From Promethearchaeota archaeon (GTDB lineage: Archaea; Asgardarchaeota; Lokiarchaeia; Sigyniarchaeales; SOKP01): a DNA stretch of 64,000 nucleotides. Of the stretch, positions 50,334 to 56,553 are shown one piece after another. Below the pieces are notes generated by a model. That model worked only from the letters and a program-made list of their open reading frames with translations. It ran no database searches and was not told the origin of the DNA. The first letter of the stretch is position 1. Each line of letters begins with the position of its first letter. Made by a program: the position numbers and the translations under genes. The stretch is from positions 128,001 to 192,000 of the forward strand of contig JAUVNS010000011.1 in NCBI GenBank assembly GCA_030599585.1, given 5' to 3'.

Positions 50334-51137
50334 TTGTCAGATGATATGTTTTTAGATGGAAAAACGGCTCTAATCACTGGAGCGGGTAGCGGATTTGGTC
50401 AAAAAATGGCAGTCGCATTTGCTGCTAAAGGAGCAAATCTAGTCTTAAATGATATTAATGAATCTGGTTTAAAAGAAACGCGCGATTTAGTCCTGAAGCA
50501 GTATAAAACTCAGATTCTCTTAGTTAAAGCCGATGTTTCAAAATCTGAAGAAGTAAACGAGATGGCTAAAAAAACTTTTGATATTTTCGATAATGTCTTT
50601 CTACTTGTGAATAACGCAGGTATCGATGGAGGACTTTACACTTCACTAAAAGCAAAAGAGGAAGTTTATGATAAAGTATTTGCAATCAATGTAAAAGGCC
50701 CATTAAATGTAAGTAAGGCATTTTTTCGGAGAATGAAACGACAAAAGCAGTTTCAACCCATAGCTGGCAAAATCATTAACATAGCATCGGTTGCGGGAAC
50801 GCCAAATGGAACAAATCCCATGCTGGGGATTTATAGCGCAAGTAAAGCGGCGTTGATAGCATTTACGCGGCTTTGGGCGCTTGAATTAGGCCCCAATAAC
50901 ATAACTGTGAACGCCATAAGTCCTGGTGTTTTTCTAACGCCTATATATAACAACGATCCCAAATTAATTCGCCAATTTCTTGAAACAAGAAAAATTAAAA
51001 TACCAATTGATAAGATAGGGGAATCAAAATGGGTAGCTGACTTAGCATTATTTTTAGCATCTCCTACAGCAGATTATATTACCGGACAAAACTTGGTTAT
51101 TGATGGGGGAATGTCAATTTCGATTAGTAAACTGTAA
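50334..51137 (+). CDS. Short-chain dehydrogenase/reductase
   Basis: TGAGSGFG, NNAG, YSASK, VNAISPG, IDGG. Confidence 0.93.
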   Translation: MSDDMFLDGKTALITGAGSGFGQKMAVAFAAKGANLVLNDINESGLKETRDLVLKQYKTQILLVKADVSKSEEVNEMAKKTFDIFDNVFLLVNNAGIDGGLYTSLKAKEEVYDKVFAINVKGPLNVSKAFFRRMKRQKQFQPIAGKIINIASVAGTPNGTNPMLGIYSASKAALIAFTRLWALELGPNNITVNAISPGVFLTPIYNNDPKLIRQFLETRKIKIPIDKIGESKWVADLALFLASPTADYITGQNLVIDGGMSISISKL

Positions 51138-51320
51138 ATCAATGATCTTACTATATCAAAAAGATATTTTATAATAACTTTACTTTTTAATGTTTATGAT
51201 TGAATTTATTCTATGCAAAAGGGTTATAACACCGAACTTGAATGTCGATTATTGAAAAATATATAGTTTTTTAGAATTCATAGGTTATTTATCTAATATC
51301 CTCTCTACTTGAGTAAGAGC

Positions 51321-51554
51321 TTAAAAAAGAAAGAAAAATAAAGATGGGCTTATATGGGGCTCTAAATTAAAAAGCTCTTATAAGCAGCACCAAATTATGG
51401 ATTAATTGTACCTTCCCCGGGCACTACACTCACCTTAAATATTAATTCGGTTAATTTTATCATAAATCTAAATAAAAGATGGAATTTTTCCACTTTTCAT
51501 TAACTTATTTTCTCTTTATTTATTTAAACTTCAATAATTATTGAAAAATGAATA
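51321..51554. repeat. Direct repeat unit 1 (~235 bp)
   Basis: Aligns with 51614-51849 at an offset of about 292-295 nt. Confidence 0.92.
51395..51424 (-). CDS. Micro-ORF, 9-aa peptide MPGEGTINP (copy 1)
   Basis: AAGGTGA RBS 5 nt before GTG; paralog shows synonymous changes. Confidence 0.6.
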   Translation of the reverse strand: MPGEGTINP

Positions 51555-51613
51555 TATAAGGAAGTAGGCTATAGTTCTAATTTTAACATTATAAAGAACG
51601 GAAAAATTTTTAA

Positions 51614-51849
51614 TTAAAAAAGAGAAAAATAAATAGTGGGCTTATAAAGAGCGTTAAAGTAAAGGACTCATATAAGCAATACCAAATTACGGATTAATAT
51701 AACCTTCCCCTGGCATTAGAATAATCACCTTAAATATTAATTCGGTTATTTTTTTTTTAATTTAAATAAAAGATGGTGTTTTTTCATCTTTTCTTCAACT
51801 TATTTTCTCTTTAAATATTTAAACTTCAATACTAATTTTGAAATGAATA
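51614..51849. repeat. Direct repeat unit 2 (~235 bp)
   Basis: Aligns with 51321-51554. Confidence 0.92.
51687..51716 (-). CDS. Micro-ORF, 9-aa peptide MPGEGYINP (copy 2)
   Basis: AAGGTGA RBS 8 nt before ATG; TAA at the same position as copy 1. Confidence 0.62.
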   Translation of the reverse strand: MPGEGYINP

Positions 51850-51980
51850 CTTCATCTGGGCTTAGATTTATTTATTTTAATTTTAAAAGTAGTAGTATTT
51901 AAATTTGGATCCTTTGGTAGCTTCGTTGATTCTGATGCAAATCTCTACTGAAGTGCCGCAATCAATTGTTAAAAATGCTC

Positions 51981-53189
51981 TTAAATTAAATCAGAGGGTA
52001 GAGTTGGGTTAACGAGCAAATTTTGAAACTCTTTAATAGAGGGTTTTTTACCATATTTTTGTCTTATGGCATTTGTACCAAGATGATATAAAAAAGCGTT
52101 TTTTGAATATGCCGGAGTAGATAACCTTTTTAACTCCATTTTTAGACCCGCCTCATTAAAAAGTTCAGCATTTTTACCATATTGAATCAGTTCTTCTTCG
52201 CTGTACTTATTGACTACCGCATGATATGCAAAATTATACCAAAAGAGTGTTGTTTTAGCTTTTAACTTATCTTGCATTACTATTTTTTCAAGGGATGCTT
52301 CTTTTGATGCATCTGTACAAAAATCTCTCAATAATATTTCTGCAGCTTCCTTGTTTGAAAAAAGCATGGAATTTGCTAAATTAGCAATTCCTTCGGAAAT
52401 GATCATTTTGGGAGATTGAAGAATTAAGATAGAATGCTCAAATTGATTCAGTTCGCGATATAATTTGTTTTCATTGATGACAAATTCTGTGTGGTGTCCA
52501 GGATATCCTTCATGACTAGCAGCAGACAGAAATGAGGTCCAATATATAGTATACTTCGAATTAACTTCTATTCGGGAATGAAAATTACCTAAATACCAAT
52601 TATAATAAGCCCATTTTATTTTGTCATTTAAGTTTTCTGGTAGATCTATAGATATATGTTCCTCTTCAGGTAGGAGATTAGGAAATAATTTATTAGTCTG
52701 TTTTCTTACAATATTAAGCGCTTTTTGAAACAACACAAATACTTTTTCCTCGGGGACTTTTCGTGATATTCTTAATTTATCTAAACGTTCTTCTAAACTT
52801 CCAGGACCGCCGTATGCTTCATCGTACTCGCTTTTTAAATTTTTCAGTTCTGATTCATTAGCTGGCTGTAAAGCTACATCATAAAGTTTTAAAAATTGAT
52901 CTTTTATTGAAATTTCGATTCCATTTAATAATTCTATTGAAGTCCTCATTGCCGTGAGTAATTTTTCTAGATATCTTTCACGTTTTATATCATAACCTTG
53001 TAAGTCTAGTTTATTTAATAGGTTGTCTGAGGTAATCAATAATTTGCTTGGCGAGGTTATAGCTTCATTATCGACAATCTGGCGAAATTTTTCTGGACCG
53101 TAATAAAAATCGACATACCCCTTAATGTGTTTGTCAATTCTTAGAGCGAGTATTAGATATTCTTCTCCAAACTCAGATATTCTTACCAT
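51981..53189 (-). CDS. DUF885-like Zn metallopeptidase
   Basis: HEGYPGHH zincin-variant motif, downstream SEGIA ligand, Y..G near the C-terminus. Confidence 0.75.
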   Translation of the reverse strand: MVRISEFGEEYLILALRIDKHIKGYVDFYYGPEKFRQIVDNEAITSPSKLLITSDNLLNKLDLQGYDIKRERYLEKLLTAMRTSIELLNGIEISIKDQFLKLYDVALQPANESELKNLKSEYDEAYGGPGSLEERLDKLRISRKVPEEKVFVLFQKALNIVRKQTNKLFPNLLPEEEHISIDLPENLNDKIKWAYYNWYLGNFHSRIEVNSKYTIYWTSFLSAASHEGYPGHHTEFVINENKLYRELNQFEHSILILQSPKMIISEGIANLANSMLFSNKEAAEILLRDFCTDASKEASLEKIVMQDKLKAKTTLFWYNFAYHAVVNKYSEEELIQYGKNAELFNEAGLKMELKRLSTPAYSKNAFLYHLGTNAIRQKYGKKPSIKEFQNLLVNPTLPSDLI

Positions 53190-53303: not shown

Positions 53304-54473
53304 TTATGACCCACATAAATAAGAACGATGTAAAAACCTTAATTTTAAATCTATAACTATCAAATCTGACTTAGGAGAAAACGGTTTAACAACCTTGGAG
53401 TTCAAAATTTCTTCGATATGCCATCCACAATCTTTTAAATTAGTATTTAAATTTTCAATTCCTTTTTTGATTGGATTTGGTTTCTCACAGAATTGATAGA
53501 AATGTAGTATTCCGGTTGGTTTTTTCATCAAAAAACATGCAACATCAAGAAAATTAATAGATTGTTCTGGTAAATTCATTATGATTCTGTCGATTGTGTG
53601 TTTTAAACTATTTCCTAATTTGTGTTCAGGATTTAAAAGCTCATTAACATCCATGTTATAGGCGATCACCTCTCCTTTCATTTGGTTAATTTCAATATTT
53701 TCAATAAGATATTTGTATGCAGATGGGTTGACATCGAAAGCATAAATGTTTACTTCATTGTTTTTTGCTATTTGAATCGAGAATGGGCCAACTCCCGCAA
53801 ACATATCTACAATTGTTTCTTGTTTTTTGAATATATTTGAACTTATACGCTTTCTTTCAAATACTAACCGGGGGGTGAAATAAGTTTTTTTTACATCTAA
53901 TTTAAATAAACAGTCGTTTTCTTTATGGATTGTTTCTGGATTGTCATCGCCATAGATAACTTTTAACTCTTTTAATCTATGTTTTCCTTTTACTTCGCTT
54001 TTTTTCTCGTAAACCGTCTCCACTGATTTATTTACGCTTACCAGCGCTTTAGCTACTTTTTTCTTGTAATGTAAGAGATTTTTATCGTCAACTGTATTTA
54101 TTTGGTCAAATTCAACAATAGCAATCTTTCCAACAATATCGTAAGATTTTGGAACTAATTCCAAAATATTTTGGGGTAATTTATCCTCGAGAGCTTCTTC
54201 AATAGAGCGATATTTGTAATTTTCTTCAGCAATTCCGATAGTGCTAACTATGTCAAAATTTAACTTATTTGAAATCTCTCCAATTAGCTCCTTTATTTTT
54301 CCTATATCATTTACTAAGGGAAAAAGCACATAGGCGCCATCGTGTATAACTTTTATTCCTCTATTGAGAAAAGTTTCATTTGGTAATCTTGTTTTTAGGA
54401 ATTTGAGGAATTTCTCAGCAGATTCTTGTTTAATTTTTAAAAATTGCGTCTGTTTCTTGTTTTTTTTACCCAT
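53304..54473 (-). CDS. trm5: tRNA G37 methyltransferase, Trm5/Taw2 family
   Basis: SYDIVGKIAI, TIHKEN, YFTPRL..ER, DMFAGVGPF, IIMNLP. Confidence 0.88.
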   Translation of the reverse strand: MGKKNKKQTQFLKIKQESAEKFLKFLKTRLPNETFLNRGIKVIHDGAYVLFPLVNDIGKIKELIGEISNKLNFDIVSTIGIAEENYKYRSIEEALEDKLPQNILELVPKSYDIVGKIAIVEFDQINTVDDKNLLHYKKKVAKALVSVNKSVETVYEKKSEVKGKHRLKELKVIYGDDNPETIHKENDCLFKLDVKKTYFTPRLVFERKRISSNIFKKQETIVDMFAGVGPFSIQIAKNNEVNIYAFDVNPSAYKYLIENIEINQMKGEVIAYNMDVNELLNPEHKLGNSLKHTIDRIIMNLPEQSINFLDVACFLMKKPTGILHFYQFCEKPNPIKKGIENLNTNLKDCGWHIEEILNSKVVKPFSPKSDLIVIDLKLRFLHRSYLCGS

Positions 54474-54897
54474 ATGCATCATTAACTTCAAAAATAATTG
54501 AAAATCGTTCCTTGGAACTGGCTAAATTCTTAATGAGATTTCTGTCCAGTTCGCTTGAGGATTTAGAGCATTTTATTAAAATCGTTCTGTCGCATATATA
54601 ATCACTTTTTCGAAAAACCATGTCTTTTTTGTTGATGAAAGTTAAATTTTTATGGCCAAAACCGTAAAAAGAATCAACTACATCTCCCACTTTTATAATT
54701 ACCGTGATTTTTCCTCCGGATGTAATCTTTTTCTTTAGGTGCTGATTTAGATCGTAGCAGGCTTTTGATGCCCCGATACCTAATATGCACGTTCCATTTT
54801 TCGTGAGATACATATCCTTAGTTAATTCAATAGTCGTGGTATGGGTGCATTGAATTAGTTGGTGGCCTTGTGCGGTAATTGTATCTAATATAGTCAT
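54466..54897 (-). CDS. DUF371 family protein
   Basis: GH..I..TH.TTIELTKD, G.CILG, VFRKSDYICDRT. Confidence 0.85.
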   Translation of the reverse strand: MTILDTITAQGHQLIQCTHTTTIELTKDMYLTKNGTCILGIGASKACYDLNQHLKKKITSGGKITVIIKVGDVVDSFYGFGHKNLTFINKKDMVFRKSDYICDRTILIKCSKSSSELDRNLIKNLASSKERFSIIFEVNDAYG

Positions 54898-54900
54898 ATC

Positions 54901-56553
54901 CTATTTTTCCTTAAAAAAATGTAAAATATCTTTAATTTGGCTAAAAACAGAAAAATTTGAATTATACACTCTCTTTAAAATATTATTTAATCTATGAATG
55001 GGATGATTTTCTGGAAATTGCCTTGTTTCTTCGAATTGGTTTTGAAAGAAATCAGGAATTAGAAGTCCACATTTTTCATAAGTAGTCGAAAATTTAGCTA
55101 AAAACTTTTTGGTTGTTTTAATAGAATTTTGATAACTACCATCATTTGTGTTATAGGTGGAACTTGTTTCGTATTGTCCCATCGGAAAAGAATCAATTAA
55201 CTCGTATGGAATAATACCGTAAATAATAGAGTAAAACGCTAAATGAATTTGTTCTCTTTTAATTAAGTCGTTGTTATTTATTTCAGCTAACCATTTATTA
55301 ATCGTAGGAGAAGTTTTACCCTTAACATCTAATTCAGGTAAAACAATAAAATATTGAGCCTCTTTAGGCGGGCGATAATTATTTAATAATTTCTGTTCGT
55401 ACCGATAAATTAAAGGTCTATCTACACTCTCTTTAGATGAGTAAAGTCTTCCATGGCTTTTATAAATTTTCTCATAAACTTCGAAGAGGGGCTTATTTTT
55501 TTTTATTAAACTTGTTGCTTTAACTAAATTGGGGTGGCTGCGAATTCTCTGTTCTACTAACTCCCATAAATTTCCTTCTCTAATTGCTTGTCGAATAGTT
55601 TTCAATTCTGAGAACGATAAGTATAGGTTATGCTTAGCGATTAATTGGATCCTCAAATCTTCTTCGAACTTCATAAGTTCGGTAGGTGTATATTTTACAC
55701 AGATTGGGCAATGGCAGGGGAATTCTTTTAGTTCTTCAAGTTTCTTGGTGCCTGTGGATAAAGTAAAATAACGATTTTCCTTTGCAAACAAGACATACGC
55801 GGCTGAATCCATTAAATCACAACCACACGCTACAGCTAATGAAAAATATTGTGGTAATCCTAGCCCAAACATGTGAATTGGTGTGTTAGGAATAATGTGC
55901 TTCTTTACAGTTAATAACATTTGTGTAGTGAGGTCGAATCTATAATTTAAAAACGCTTTTACAATACCCCCTATGGCGTAGACCCCAAAATCTAATTTGC
56001 TCATTTCAATTGTGCTTTCTTTCAACAAATCAAGATGTGTTCCTCCGTGCAACGGTCCAAACCAATAGCAATCCTGCCGAGATCTTCTTGAAAGATTGTC
56101 TTTTGCCCTCTCAATTGTGGTATTTACTTTTTCTTTTGCGATTTCGTAATTATCTTCTAATTGTACTGGGATATCTAAGATCACAGGGAAATCTGAGCCG
56201 ATATCTTCTTGAAATCTTTCTATAGTAGTAGCATCAAGATCAAAAGAGTCTTTGTTATACATGTATTGTTGAAATGCTCCACTATCTGTTGCAATTATCC
56301 CATCGTAATTCAGATATTCGTGGAGTCCTTTCTGGAGAATCTGAGTTTTTAATTTTTCATTTTTATAAATAATGTATGCGTTAGTAAAAAGACATTGTGC
56401 CCCGAATGTTTTAAGATCTTGGGCTGCGATAATATTTCTGGAGGGATGCACTACTGGAAATAGATTGGGAGTAATCATCTCTTTACCGTTCAAGTTGATT
56501 CGTCCTAACCTTGCTAATGCATCAACATCTTCTATTTCGAACTTCATCTTCAT
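54901..56553 (-). CDS. tgtA: Archaeosine tRNA-guanine(15) transglycosylase
   Basis: TDSGAFQ, LDIP, HMFG, DLMDSAAY, CHCPIC..HN Zn site, LWELVE.R.RSHP; no obvious PUA domain. Confidence 0.92.
   Translation of the reverse strand: MKMKFEIEDVDALARLGRINLNGKEMITPNLFPVVHPSRNIIAAQDLKTFGAQCLFTNAYIIYKNEKLKTQILQKGLHEYLNYDGIIATDSGAFQQYMYNKDSFDLDATTIERFQEDIGSDFPVILDIPVQLEDNYEIAKEKVNTTIERAKDNLSRRSRQDCYWFGPLHGGTHLDLLKESTIEMSKLDFGVYAIGGIVKAFLNYRFDLTTQMLLTVKKHIIPNTPIHMFGLGLPQYFSLAVACGCDLMDSAAYVLFAKENRYFTLSTGTKKLEELKEFPCHCPICVKYTPTELMKFEEDLRIQLIAKHNLYLSFSELKTIRQAIREGNLWELVEQRIRSHPNLVKATSLIKKNKPLFEVYEKIYKSHGRLYSSKESVDRPLIYRYEQKLLNNYRPPKEAQYFIVLPELDVKGKTSPTINKWLAEINNNDLIKREQIHLAFYSIIYGIIPYELIDSFPMGQYETSSTYNTNDGSYQNSIKTTKKFLAKFSTTYEKCGLLIPDFFQNQFEETRQFPENHPIHRLNNILKRVYNSNFSVFSQIKDILHFFKEK

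Follow-up and report, generated by a model that had tools for sequence, protein, structure and literature searches.

What do two short, related stretches of DNA behind a peptidase-like gene of a Lokiarchaeia genome encode, and does their position there mean more than chance adjacency? The window analysed here is the whole stretch of 64,000 nt at positions 128,001–192,000 (forward strand) of contig JAUVNS010000011.1 from the Promethearchaeota archaeon assembly GCA_030599585.1 (GTDB lineage Archaea; Asgardarchaeota; Lokiarchaeia; Sigyniarchaeales; SOKP01).

Two tandem units with nine-codon open reading frames

The minus strand of window positions 51321–51855 carries two units, termed A and B, that are 81–84% identical and have a start-to-start spacing of 292–295 nt. 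Both are built in the same order—BRE/TATA box, 5′ hairpin, Shine–Dalgarno sequence, 9-codon open reading frame (ORF), TAA, hairpin and T-run—and every element that a first-pass annotation had read in the two copies was recovered in its place on the minus strand (Table 1). As described there, the ORFs differ by three silent changes (GTG/ATG, CCC/CCA and CCA/CCG) and by one whole-codon swap, ACA/TAT, that exchanges Thr for Tyr. In metagenome relatives of unit A the start is ATG, codon 6 encodes Tyr or Ala, and silent changes to CCA, GGT and ATC occur.

Table 1. Features of the two units and of the adjoining enzyme gene (window positions)
Feature	Position	Strand	Sequence or remark
Unit B BRE/TATA box (promoter-like)	51817–51827	−	GAAGTTTAAAT (GAAG-TTTAAAT)
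Unit B 5′ leader hairpin	51768–51792	−	AAAAGATG...CATCTTTT; near where the transcript should start; kept in the G028, G008 and G011 orthologs
Unit B Shine–Dalgarno	51725–51731	−	AAGGTGA
Unit B micro-ORF	51687–51716	−	ATG CCA GGG GAA GGT TAT ATT AAT CCG TAA = MPGEGYINP
Unit B 3′ hairpin	51636–51683	−	GGTA..GCTTATATGAG / CGCTCTTTATAAGC..CCAC; onset 3 nt past TAA
Unit B T-rich terminator tract	51615–51634	−	directly 3′ of the unit B hairpin
Unit A BRE/TATA box (promoter-like)	51522–51532	−	GAAGTTTAAAT (GAAG-TTTAAAT)
Unit A 5′ leader hairpin	51474–51497	−	AAAAGTGG...CCATCTTTT
Unit A Shine–Dalgarno	51430–51436	−	AAGGTGA
Unit A micro-ORF	51395–51424	−	GTG CCC GGG GAA GGT ACA ATT AAT CCA TAA = MPGEGTINP
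Unit A 3′ hairpin	51344–51391	−	GGTG..GCTTATAAGAGC / GCCCCATATAAGC..CCAT; onset 3 nt past TAA
Unit A T-rich terminator tract	51323–51342	−	directly 3′ of the unit A hairpin
402-aa zinc-peptidase-like gene	51981–53189	−	HEGYPGHH at residues 226–233; invariant E251

The gene that follows the units (50334–51137, plus strand) is convergent with them, and the neighbouring genes in the window are SDR, TYW2, DUF371 and TGT. We found no tRNA or tmRNA at the unit locus, and an Rfam 15 scan of positions 50800–52300 gave chance-level matches only (best E-value 2.7, no score near gathering). Compared with shuffles, whole-unit RNA folding gave z-scores of −0.16 for unit A and −1.96 for unit B (weakly better), indicating that there is no strong global RNA structure.

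A search with the strict pattern [AGT]TG-CCN-GGN-N15-CCN-stop returned six matches in the 4.85-Mb source genome, against ~0.6 expected, and all six are such units, whereas an off-frame control pattern with two extra N had no match in this genome and ~0.1 per genome across 400 Asgard genomes. BLASTN in the source genome recovered the two window copies and no further ones. The two-unit observation is confirmed and lies far beyond chance. The family comprises ~100 units from 13 of the 42 genomes of the genus, with a single-genome maximum of 10 enzyme genes and 18–19 peptide genes.

Coding signature of the nine-codon ORF

Across the family the ORF follows the rule M-P-G-x5-P-TAA and always has nine codons, with a hypervariable x5; the Pro-bounded core GEG[T/Y]INP that had been proposed from the two window copies proved local to one orthologous group. 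Among 78 distinct units, codon 1 is exclusively a start codon (ATG in 75, TTG in 2 and GTG in 1), and the fixed codons vary at the wobble position only: Pro2 is written CCT, CCA or CCC, whereas Gly3 uses all four GGN and Pro9 all four CCN codons. The stop codon is TAA in all 78, compared with 70% genome-wide. Core composition is codon-phased (position 1, 45% G and 9% T; position 3, 83% A+T). Lys and Arg account for 5 of 325 core residues despite the A+T-rich genome, Trp is absent, and Q/E is preferred at peptide position 4 and G/D at position 6.

The first-pass annotation had named frameshifted copies and MITE-like dispersal as signs against a peptide gene. We looked for both and saw neither: no length changes or frameshifts occur among ~85 units, and a stop-permitting pattern detected an in-frame stop in at most 2 of them, compared with ~30% of shuffled cores. 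A TATA-like octamer stands 35–140 nt 5′ of the start codon in 70 of the 78 units (10.7% of random genome windows), and GGTGA, GGAGTGA or AGTGAG precedes the start codon at a fixed distance in ~80 units. The downstream hairpin begins 2–3 nt past the stop in 37 of 57 units (median z −3.5); its sequence varies by unit type and the stem is retained. Frame, start codon and Shine–Dalgarno spacing are held over ~85 units with three unrelated leader/hairpin types. Variation in 30 type II units is confined to the 15-nt core, between flanks that are 80–100% conserved, and unit pairs with a flank divergence of ≤0.15 have a core divergence of 0.45.

Some orthologs have identical ORFs although their flanks diverge by 15–22%. 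The absence of even synonymous changes in some orthologs, together with the high conservation of non-coding flanks, indicates that RNA-level constraints also exist. Over codons 2–9, pN/pS is 0.79, a value that cannot separate relaxed from diversifying selection because the paralogous cassettes are old (enzymes 55–85% identical), and positive selection on the core is not claimed. The wobble-only variation of the fixed codons, the phased composition and the avoidance of stops support the earlier view that the units are real micro-peptide genes overlooked by gene callers, with a peptide sequence that is under selection.

The HEGYPGHH enzyme and its pairing with the units

The co-directional gene upstream of the units had been called a DUF885-like peptidase. 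Residues H226, Y229, G231, H232 and H233 are invariant among 58 homologs. Its Pfam match to DUF885 (PF05960) is weak, with a score of 18.6 bits that falls below the gathering cut-off of 32.4, and 25 of the 58 enzyme-family members match DUF885 at E < 0.01 (best, 4e-6). The AlphaFold (AF2) model of the 402-aa protein (pLDDT 95.5) aligned over 350–363 residues with the DUF885 structures 3IUK, 3U24 and 3O0Y (VIA Z 21.8, 18.9 and 18.4, respectively; Foldseek E 5e-7 to 1.5e-4); VIA Z was 12.4–14.6 for M32, ~12 for M3 and ~10 for ACE/ACE2. No signal peptide and no hydrophobic or membrane segment was found in the protein, nor any Pfam match to an HTH or TPR domain. Searches with the enzyme gave no match in NCBIfam, only unnamed clusters in the ESM Atlas and, in the PDB by sequence, chance TPR-like matches and a weak motif match to 3O0Y; neither the enzyme nor a distant paralog matched the PADLOC defence models.

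Motif and fold (Z 18–22) thus fit the earlier call, and the protein is a predicted cytosolic, distant relative of DUF885 whose channel fold is of the oligopeptidase/carboxypeptidase type. It shares with DUF885 proteins the HE-x2-PGHH motif and the overall fold over ~360 residues, but its family is shorter (~400 aa versus ~550–600 aa), cytosolic rather than lipoprotein, and below the Pfam gathering threshold. The model also resembles M32, M3 and ACE/ACE2 in its two-lobed helical gluzincin fold with a channel that would enclose short peptides (Z 10–14.6); unlike M32, the protein has the metal motif HE-x4-H in place of HExxH and lacks every one of the signature motifs HPF, DxRxT, IRxxAD and GxxQDxHW. 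We know of no substrate for DUF885 itself.

The first-pass annotation had tied peptide and peptidase by adjacency only. The adjacency holds, but not the restriction to it: 60 of 68 type I/II units lie 93–943 nt downstream of a co-directional gene for a ~400-aa HEGYPGHH enzyme, and at least one unit follows 47 of the 48 close-class enzyme genes whose downstream sequence was available. The 13 genomes, of 42 in the genus, that carry close-class enzyme genes are exactly those that carry peptide genes, and both kinds of gene are missing from 98–100% complete genomes inside the carrier subclade, although these co-occurrence counts overstate independence because the carrier genomes fall in one subclade. 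Unit positions are orthologous across species, and besides the enzyme no other conserved neighbour gene of the units was found. Distant enzyme paralogs (37–49% identity) adjoin related micro-ORFs of the form MPH...P (MPHAGDAVP, MPHSGNVVP and MPHTEGIVP), several of which are convergent with the enzyme, so that the link is independent of co-transcription. Five of ten distant-class loci checked had no unit in the scanned sequence, and no comparable micro-ORFs were found alongside the GC-rich distant homologs P0139, P0149 and P0206. These data show a conserved micropeptide–enzyme pairing beyond adjacency. In the literature on DUF885, on Asgard small ORFs and peptides and on archaeal RiPPs, we found no description of such a pairing.

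Each cassette consists of one enzyme gene and one to four peptide genes. One enzyme can be followed by up to three different peptides, indicating that there is no one-to-one specificity. Units also occur apart from an intact enzyme: at G008:C285 the enzyme gene bears internal stops and a unit persists nearby, and genome G028 contains an orphan unit. A third class (type III) stands beside an MFS transporter gene with no enzyme within 5 kb. In at least nine species it lies ~245 nt upstream of the co-directional transporter gene, with a second promoter-like box between the two. A 1205-aa neighbour of the type III unit had no Pfam match even at E 5, and none in the PDB or NCBIfam.

Candidate roles of the nonapeptides

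We place slightly better than even confidence in the reading that the unit is translated and that its Pro-capped nonapeptide is the dedicated ligand, either as a substrate or as an inhibitor, of the channel-type zinc peptidase encoded next to it. Each unit has the anatomy of a self-contained small gene, from promoter, leader and ribosome-binding site through the ORF to the hairpin/T-run end, and its product in vivo would be the leaderless nonapeptide Met-Pro-Gly-x5-Pro. Pro at position 2 and the C-terminal Pro would shield the peptide from general amino- and carboxypeptidases, leaving the five middle residues as a variable code. The ~400-aa zinc enzyme, with a closed channel that would admit only short peptides and anchor a free C-terminal carboxylate, may bind the nonapeptide from one end to the other, and this would account for a length fixed at nine residues. 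As to the reaction, the enzyme may cleave or trim the nonapeptide, setting its maturation or lifetime, or the nonapeptide may block the enzyme. The cassettes have multiplied and diversified, and have the look of an accessory module for recognition, signalling or conflict.

Among known systems, the leaderless communication peptides of Firmicutes (SIP/LCP with RopB) are encoded by a 24-bp ORF that specifies the mature 8-residue peptide directly, have no secretion leader or cleavage site, adjoin the gene of their cytosolic partner, are missed by annotation and vary in their ‘code’ between lineages (PMC10518010). The 9-codon leaderless ORFs described here likewise stand behind a partner gene, at 93–943 nt. 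However, RopB-type partners are RRNPPA-family TPR/HTH transcription factors, whereas the present partner has a zinc-peptidase fold and no DNA-binding domain, and the present peptides are archaeal, Pro-capped and neutral to acidic, and come in arrays of 1–4 genes, each with its own promoter and terminator. Rap–Phr (RRNPP) systems also have many paralogous cassettes per genome, in which a gene for a ~400-aa protein is followed by a co-directional peptide gene with its own promoter, and their peptides are hypervariable and patchily distributed. Cassette layout, paralogy, hypervariability and patchiness are thus common to both, but Phr peptides start as ~40-aa pro-peptides that bear a signal sequence and undergo processing outside the cell, and their partner is a TPR protein.

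In the microcin C system, mccA (7 codons) is among the smallest known genes and is flanked by genes for the dedicated enzymes MccB, MccC and MccF; the system also has an MFS pump, and one of its enzymes, of the carboxypeptidase type, acts on the peptide C terminus. A tiny gene beside the gene of an enzyme, putatively dedicated to its peptide in the present case, is common to both systems. Here, an MFS neighbour accompanies only the third unit class, there is no MccB-like adenylyltransferase and no operon structure, the C terminus is Pro rather than Asn, and the enzyme is a DUF885-like gluzincin rather than an S66 peptidase. Nothing points to the minimal RiPP precursor that had been suggested for the window: the whole peptide has 9 residues, and no leader, RRE or tailoring enzyme was found among the neighbours.

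The classic ligands and inhibitors of ACE-type channel peptidases are 5–13-residue peptides ending in Pro, the bradykinin-potentiating peptides being the classic blockers. In a special case of the ligand reading that we consider unlikely, the enzyme would be a latent toxin, and short-lived nonapeptides under constant production would plug its channel as antitoxins; after a shut-off of host expression, such as a virus may cause, they would decay and the protease would act. The Pro-ending peptides would suit such a role, as would the hypervariable cores, the arrays of peptide genes, each under a strong promoter-like box of its own, and the patchy distribution within the subclade with up to 10 enzyme genes and 18–19 peptide genes per genome. 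The lack of a match to PADLOC models speaks against it, as do the orphan peptide genes where the enzyme is lost or broken and the distant-class loci without a unit (5 of 10 checked), and Pro caps favour a stable rather than a labile peptide.

Quite unlikely, in our estimate, is a ribosome-stalling micro-ORF (TnaC-like or aIF5A-sensing) that would tune termination, RNA stability or read-through with the peptide as a by-product; in this model, a ribosome that pauses on TAA would open the hairpin 2–3 nt downstream. Pro-stop and Pro-Gly are slow, stall-prone steps for the peptidyl-transferase centre of the ribosome, and the invariant residues are exactly those that are slow in peptide-bond formation and release. 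The Pro-TAA end (78/78) and hairpin onset (37/57) agree with a TnaC-like attenuator, and the type III unit does precede a co-directional gene, but a second promoter-like box separates the two. In the window the next gene is convergent rather than a co-directional target, and after enzyme-linked arrays the next gene varies in identity and lies on the opposite strand in 18 of 41, which makes the arrest-peptide control of a downstream gene once proposed improbable for enzyme-linked units. Stalling would also leave unexplained why one enzyme family has the units beside it whatever their orientation, why Lys and Arg are avoided and why positions 4 and 6 favour Q/E and G/D.

We regard as improbable that a structured ~190-nt small RNA (5′ hairpin, leader and 3′ hairpin) is the functional product and the ORF is incidental or RNA-stabilizing. 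In its favour, leaders and hairpins are better conserved than the ORF core, stems outlast changes in hairpin sequence between unit types, and some orthologs lack even synonymous changes. Against this stand the lack of a matching Rfam family, the whole-unit folding scores and, over ~85 units, the maintenance of frame, start, Shine–Dalgarno spacing, wobble-only variation, codon-phased composition and stop avoidance. A MITE-like mobile or repeated non-coding element, or a chance duplication, was rejected as very improbable, as the copies, although many per genome and some in tandem, are undispersed (each sits at a single syntenic locus or behind members of a single gene family, with orthologous positions kept across species), have no terminal inverted repeats that we could find and, by BLASTN, number only the two window copies in the source genome.

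Returning to the nonapeptide as a ligand of the zinc peptidase, we tentatively extend it, at a low probability, to a ‘lock and key’ code of Loki-type Asgard archaea, in which dedicated channel-type zinc peptidases would read or edit Pro-capped nonapeptides and the x5 core would act as a code for identity or communication, be it self/non-self or kin recognition or cell–cell signalling. The module lends itself to direct testing with synthetic nonapeptides and a single soluble recombinant enzyme. Provided that the peptides are made, their genes, with 27 coding bases, would rank with the smallest known protein-coding genes that stand alone, and would form a large gene family that escapes every annotation pipeline. 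For the large DUF885-like peptidase superfamily, the pairing offers a first concrete candidate for a substrate or ligand. It also points to recognition or signalling by peptides in the archaea closest to eukaryotes, a lineage for which, to our knowledge, almost nothing is known of cell–cell communication or conflict systems. If the lock-and-key reading is true, the cassettes would give archaea a counterpart to the peptide quorum sensing of bacteria, with entirely different components.

Two nonapeptide units beside a zinc-peptidase-like gene

Two tandem micro-peptide units (A and B; ~240 nt each, 81–84% identical and spaced 292–295 nt start to start) lie on the minus strand of the window, and re-reading of the sequence bore out all coordinates and base differences that the first-pass annotation had given for them. 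In both, a purine-rich BRE-like stretch and TTTAAAT are followed by a short hairpin near the expected transcription start, a leader, AAGGTGA, a nine-codon ORF closed by TAA and, from 3 nt past the stop, a long, imperfect hairpin, then a T-rich tract. BLASTN with the units recovered just these two copies from the source genome and, in relatives, matches with a common ORF and 3′ hairpin and differing leaders. Metagenome contigs from close relatives of the locus carry GTG-to-ATG and silent CCA, GGT and ATC changes, and their codon 6 reads Tyr or Ala; on one metagenome contig, a lone unit has A's leader and B's hairpin around a new core (MPGRGDIFP). Upstream of the neighbouring enzyme lies a tRNA-modification cluster, and in three other genomes (G002, G005 and G010) the archaeosine-type tRNA-guanine transglycosylase (arcTGT) gene shares contig and strand with an enzyme-plus-unit cassette, at a distance of 1.6–1.7 kb.

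Coordinates of units, enzyme genes and neighbours (window positions unless a genome (G; G000, source genome) and contig (C) are named; L, locus)
Feature	Position	Strand	Remarks
Unit A	51321–51560	minus	
Unit A ORF, MPGEGTINP	51395–51424	minus	GTG start
Unit B	51613–51855	minus	
Unit B ORF, MPGEGYINP	51687–51716	minus	ATG start
SDR gene	50334–51137		next gene downstream of units, convergent to them
Enzyme ORF	51981–53189	minus	402 aa, HEGYPGHH; directly upstream of units, co-directional
tRNA-modification cluster	53304–56553	minus	
TYW2/Trm5-like methyltransferase	53304–54491	minus	in cluster
DUF371	54466–54897	minus	in cluster
arcTGT	54901–56553	minus	in cluster
Third-class unit, MPGEHGIAP	G000:C40:27001–27030 (L080:7002–7031)	minus	hairpin TTCTCCCGT..ACGGGAAGAA; outside window
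Distant enzyme paralog	G000:C12:58912–60099	minus	
Distant enzyme paralog	G000:C52:58838–60034	plus	
Distant enzyme paralog	G000:C23:74916–75383	minus	
Pseudogene ortholog of window enzyme	G008:C285:31678–32876		stop codons; unit MPGQGYINP intact
Orphan unit, MPGQGYINP	G028:C75:50620–50835		unit intact
Unit with internal TGA	G004:C174:1053–1082 (L026)		MPGQT-stop-TNP

The enzyme belongs to a family with 2,205 homologs in a large protein collection (1,329 representative clusters at 50% clustering), the closest all being unnamed proteins of Loki- and Promethearchaeota, and a sub-threshold DUF885 match was its only Pfam hit. Its AlphaFold model (pLDDT 95.5, pTM 0.93) displays a predicted peptide-channel zinc-enzyme fold, matching DUF885 structures (3IUK, 3U24 and 3O0Y; VIA Z 18–22 over ~360 aligned residues), M32 carboxypeptidases (Z 12.4–14.6), M3 oligopeptidases (Z ~12), MATCAP (Z ~11) and ACE/ACE2 (Z ~10). 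These are gluzincins, whose two helical lobes leave between them a channel that encloses short peptides. Across 58 homologs, H226, Y229, G231, H232 and H233 never vary, and E227 and E251 hardly do; the sequence has an HE-x4-H metal motif but none of the M32 signature motifs, and neither a signal peptide nor a membrane segment was found in it.

Conserved pairing of units and enzyme genes

A covariance model trained on 13 units and run on 42 genus genomes yielded ~100 units in 18 of them (maximum, 19 per genome; source genome, 7). The pattern [AGT]TG-CCN-GGN-N15-CCN-stop, with internal stops allowed, has six matches in the 4.85-Mb source genome (~0.6 expected), all of which are units. Across 400 Asgard genomes, enrichment of the ATG...TAA form was confined to this genus (13 genomes with 3–18 matches each); elsewhere it occurred at most 1–2 times per genome, on par with an off-frame control (~0.1 per genome). 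Three flank types were distinguished—a long hairpin as in the window, a short hairpin (GATGTT..AACATC) and a third with the stem TTCTCCCGC..GCGGGAAAA—all with the layout of stop, 2–3 nt, hairpin and T-run. The units have an independent gene anatomy. Median hairpin folding energy is −10.1 kcal/mol (median z against shuffles, −3.5), and 70 of 78 units have a TATA-like octamer 35–140 nt before the start codon, compared with 10.7% of random windows.

The pairing of unit and enzyme is conserved. When the ORFs of 19 unit-bearing contexts were clustered, only homologs of the window enzyme recurred as a neighbour, in 18 of them. Over all loci retrieved, a same-strand enzyme gene precedes 60 of 68 long- and short-hairpin units by 93–943 nt; these units stand in arrays of 1–4, and most of the unpaired ones have no upstream sequence available; 47 of 48 close-class enzyme genes (at least 54% identity) with downstream sequence have at least one unit. 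The 13 genus genomes with a close-class enzyme are the same 13 that hold units in the pattern search. All carriers fall in one subclade (arcTGT identity to the source genome of at least 71%, a rough proxy for distance), within which several genomes, two of them 98–100% complete, lack both enzyme and units.

Divergent enzyme paralogs of this and a sister genus (37–49% identical) are adjoined by related micro-ORFs of the same SD–ORF–hairpin–T-run build (MPGSVGTIP, MPHTEGIVP, MPHAGDAVP, MPHGGPVVP, MPHSGNVVP, MPHGPGGTVIP and MPADTGGTVP), and position 3 tracks the enzyme class, with His for the distant classes and Gly for the close one. Several are convergent to their enzyme gene; that the association persists through this change of orientation favours a link between the products over one through the transcript. 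One ortholog of the window enzyme is a pseudogene beside an intact unit, and one orphan unit has no such ortholog beside it. No MPG micro-ORF was found at the distant paralogs of the source genome (36–44% identity; contigs C12, C52 and C23). Each of these has a conserved stretch on its 3′ side, which at C52 encodes on the opposite strand a ~37-residue hydrophobic small ORF ending in FRPFF. Nonapeptide ORFs were likewise not found at two remote GC-rich homologs (P0149, on metagenome contig L152, and P0206, at L153); these are near a Frankia_peptide (PF14407) RiPP-type precursor and an M16 peptidase gene, and adjoin an S9 prolyl-oligopeptidase-like gene.

Selection on the reading frame

The 78 distinct nine-codon units all have a start codon (ATG 75, TTG 2, GTG 1), followed by Pro (CCT, CCA or CCC), Gly (any GGN) and, at codon 9, Pro (any CCN; C-terminal Pro occurs in 2.2% of long ORFs of the source genome), and all end in TAA (70% genome-wide). 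The core, the five codons before Pro9, has G at 45% and T at 9% of first positions and A+T at 83% of third positions; Lys and Arg make up 5 of 325 residues, Trp is absent, and Q/E, G/D and I/T/A are favoured at positions 4, 6 and 7. Although the ATG...TAA pattern permits them, in-frame stops interrupt at most 2 of ~85 real units, compared with ~30% of shuffled cores. In one otherwise typical unit, the TGA at codon 6 could mean that the copy is decaying or that the codon is recoded. ORF length is near-constant, with a few 10–11-codon variants ending in PK, PY or PKA, and some cross-species orthologs have identical ORFs despite 15–22% flank difference. Selection acts on the ORF, both on its frame and on its composition.

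In 30 short-hairpin units, the 60-nt leader, SD, ATGCCTGGT, CCATAA, hairpin and T-run are 80–100% conserved in consensus, and only the 15 nt between these stretches vary. Unit pairs with flank difference of at most 15% differ at 45% of core positions; positive selection on the core is not claimed, because the paralogous cassettes are old and the enzymes adjoining such pairs are just 71–98% identical, and pN/pS (0.79; codons 2–9, 21 independent pairs) is uninformative on the mode of selection. The ends are fixed, and the core differs among paralogs and can be kept among orthologs. Leaders of these units (~60 nt before the start; loci L081–L131) are 80–99% identical and the neighbouring enzymes just 57–98%; this could stem from gene conversion, from a function of the RNA or from a regulator site common to the units.

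A pure stalling or attenuation element, which the invariant Pro-Gly and Pro-stop and a hairpin 2–3 nt past the stop would fit, is improbable: arrays lack a consistent downstream gene (the next gene is on the opposite strand in 18 of 41), and neither the core composition bias nor the link to one enzyme family regardless of orientation fits. Such a function may apply to the third class, 12–13 units at a syntenic locus. On one side of the unit is a divergent 1,205-aa ORF that matched nothing in Pfam, NCBIfam or PDB; on the other, ~245 nt downstream, is a co-directional MFS transporter gene, with CdhD next in line. This layout is kept in at least ten species, with no enzyme gene found within 5 kb, but a second promoter-like box separates unit and MFS gene. 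A pure small RNA is contradicted by coding signatures that hold across three unrelated flank types, and a MITE by the placement of the copies.

The nonapeptide as a candidate enzyme ligand

We lean towards reading the nonapeptide as a ligand of the neighbouring enzyme. The peptide would be made as it stands; an X-Pro N terminus and Pro at the C terminus make a peptide resistant to general exopeptidases, as in proline-containing bioactive peptides. It would enter the enzyme channel, anchored by its free C-terminal Pro carboxylate and its Met-Pro-Gly end, and such end-to-end anchoring would explain the fixed length. The enzyme would then cleave the peptide or be occupied by it, and the balance seems to tip somewhat towards a substrate or maturation role over that of an inhibitor or antitoxin. 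Since a single enzyme can be trailed by several different peptides, recognition by the enzyme probably rests on the conserved ends; something else may read the core, or the core may tune affinity.

Near concepts exist. In microcin C, the seven-codon mccA gene is accompanied by dedicated enzymes and an MFS pump; Rap–Phr cassettes are also similar in concept. Among the nearest are the leaderless communication peptides of Firmicutes, in which a 24-bp ORF gives a mature eight-residue peptide beside a cytosolic receptor (PMC10518010). All three differ from the units in partner protein, peptide chemistry and organisms, and the literature searched yielded no description of the enzyme–nonapeptide-gene pairing. 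Fixed ends and a core that varies among paralogs but can be kept among orthologs are what one would expect of a specificity determinant, and accessory systems for recognition, signalling or conflict typically show the patchy distribution, copy-number expansion and core diversity seen here.
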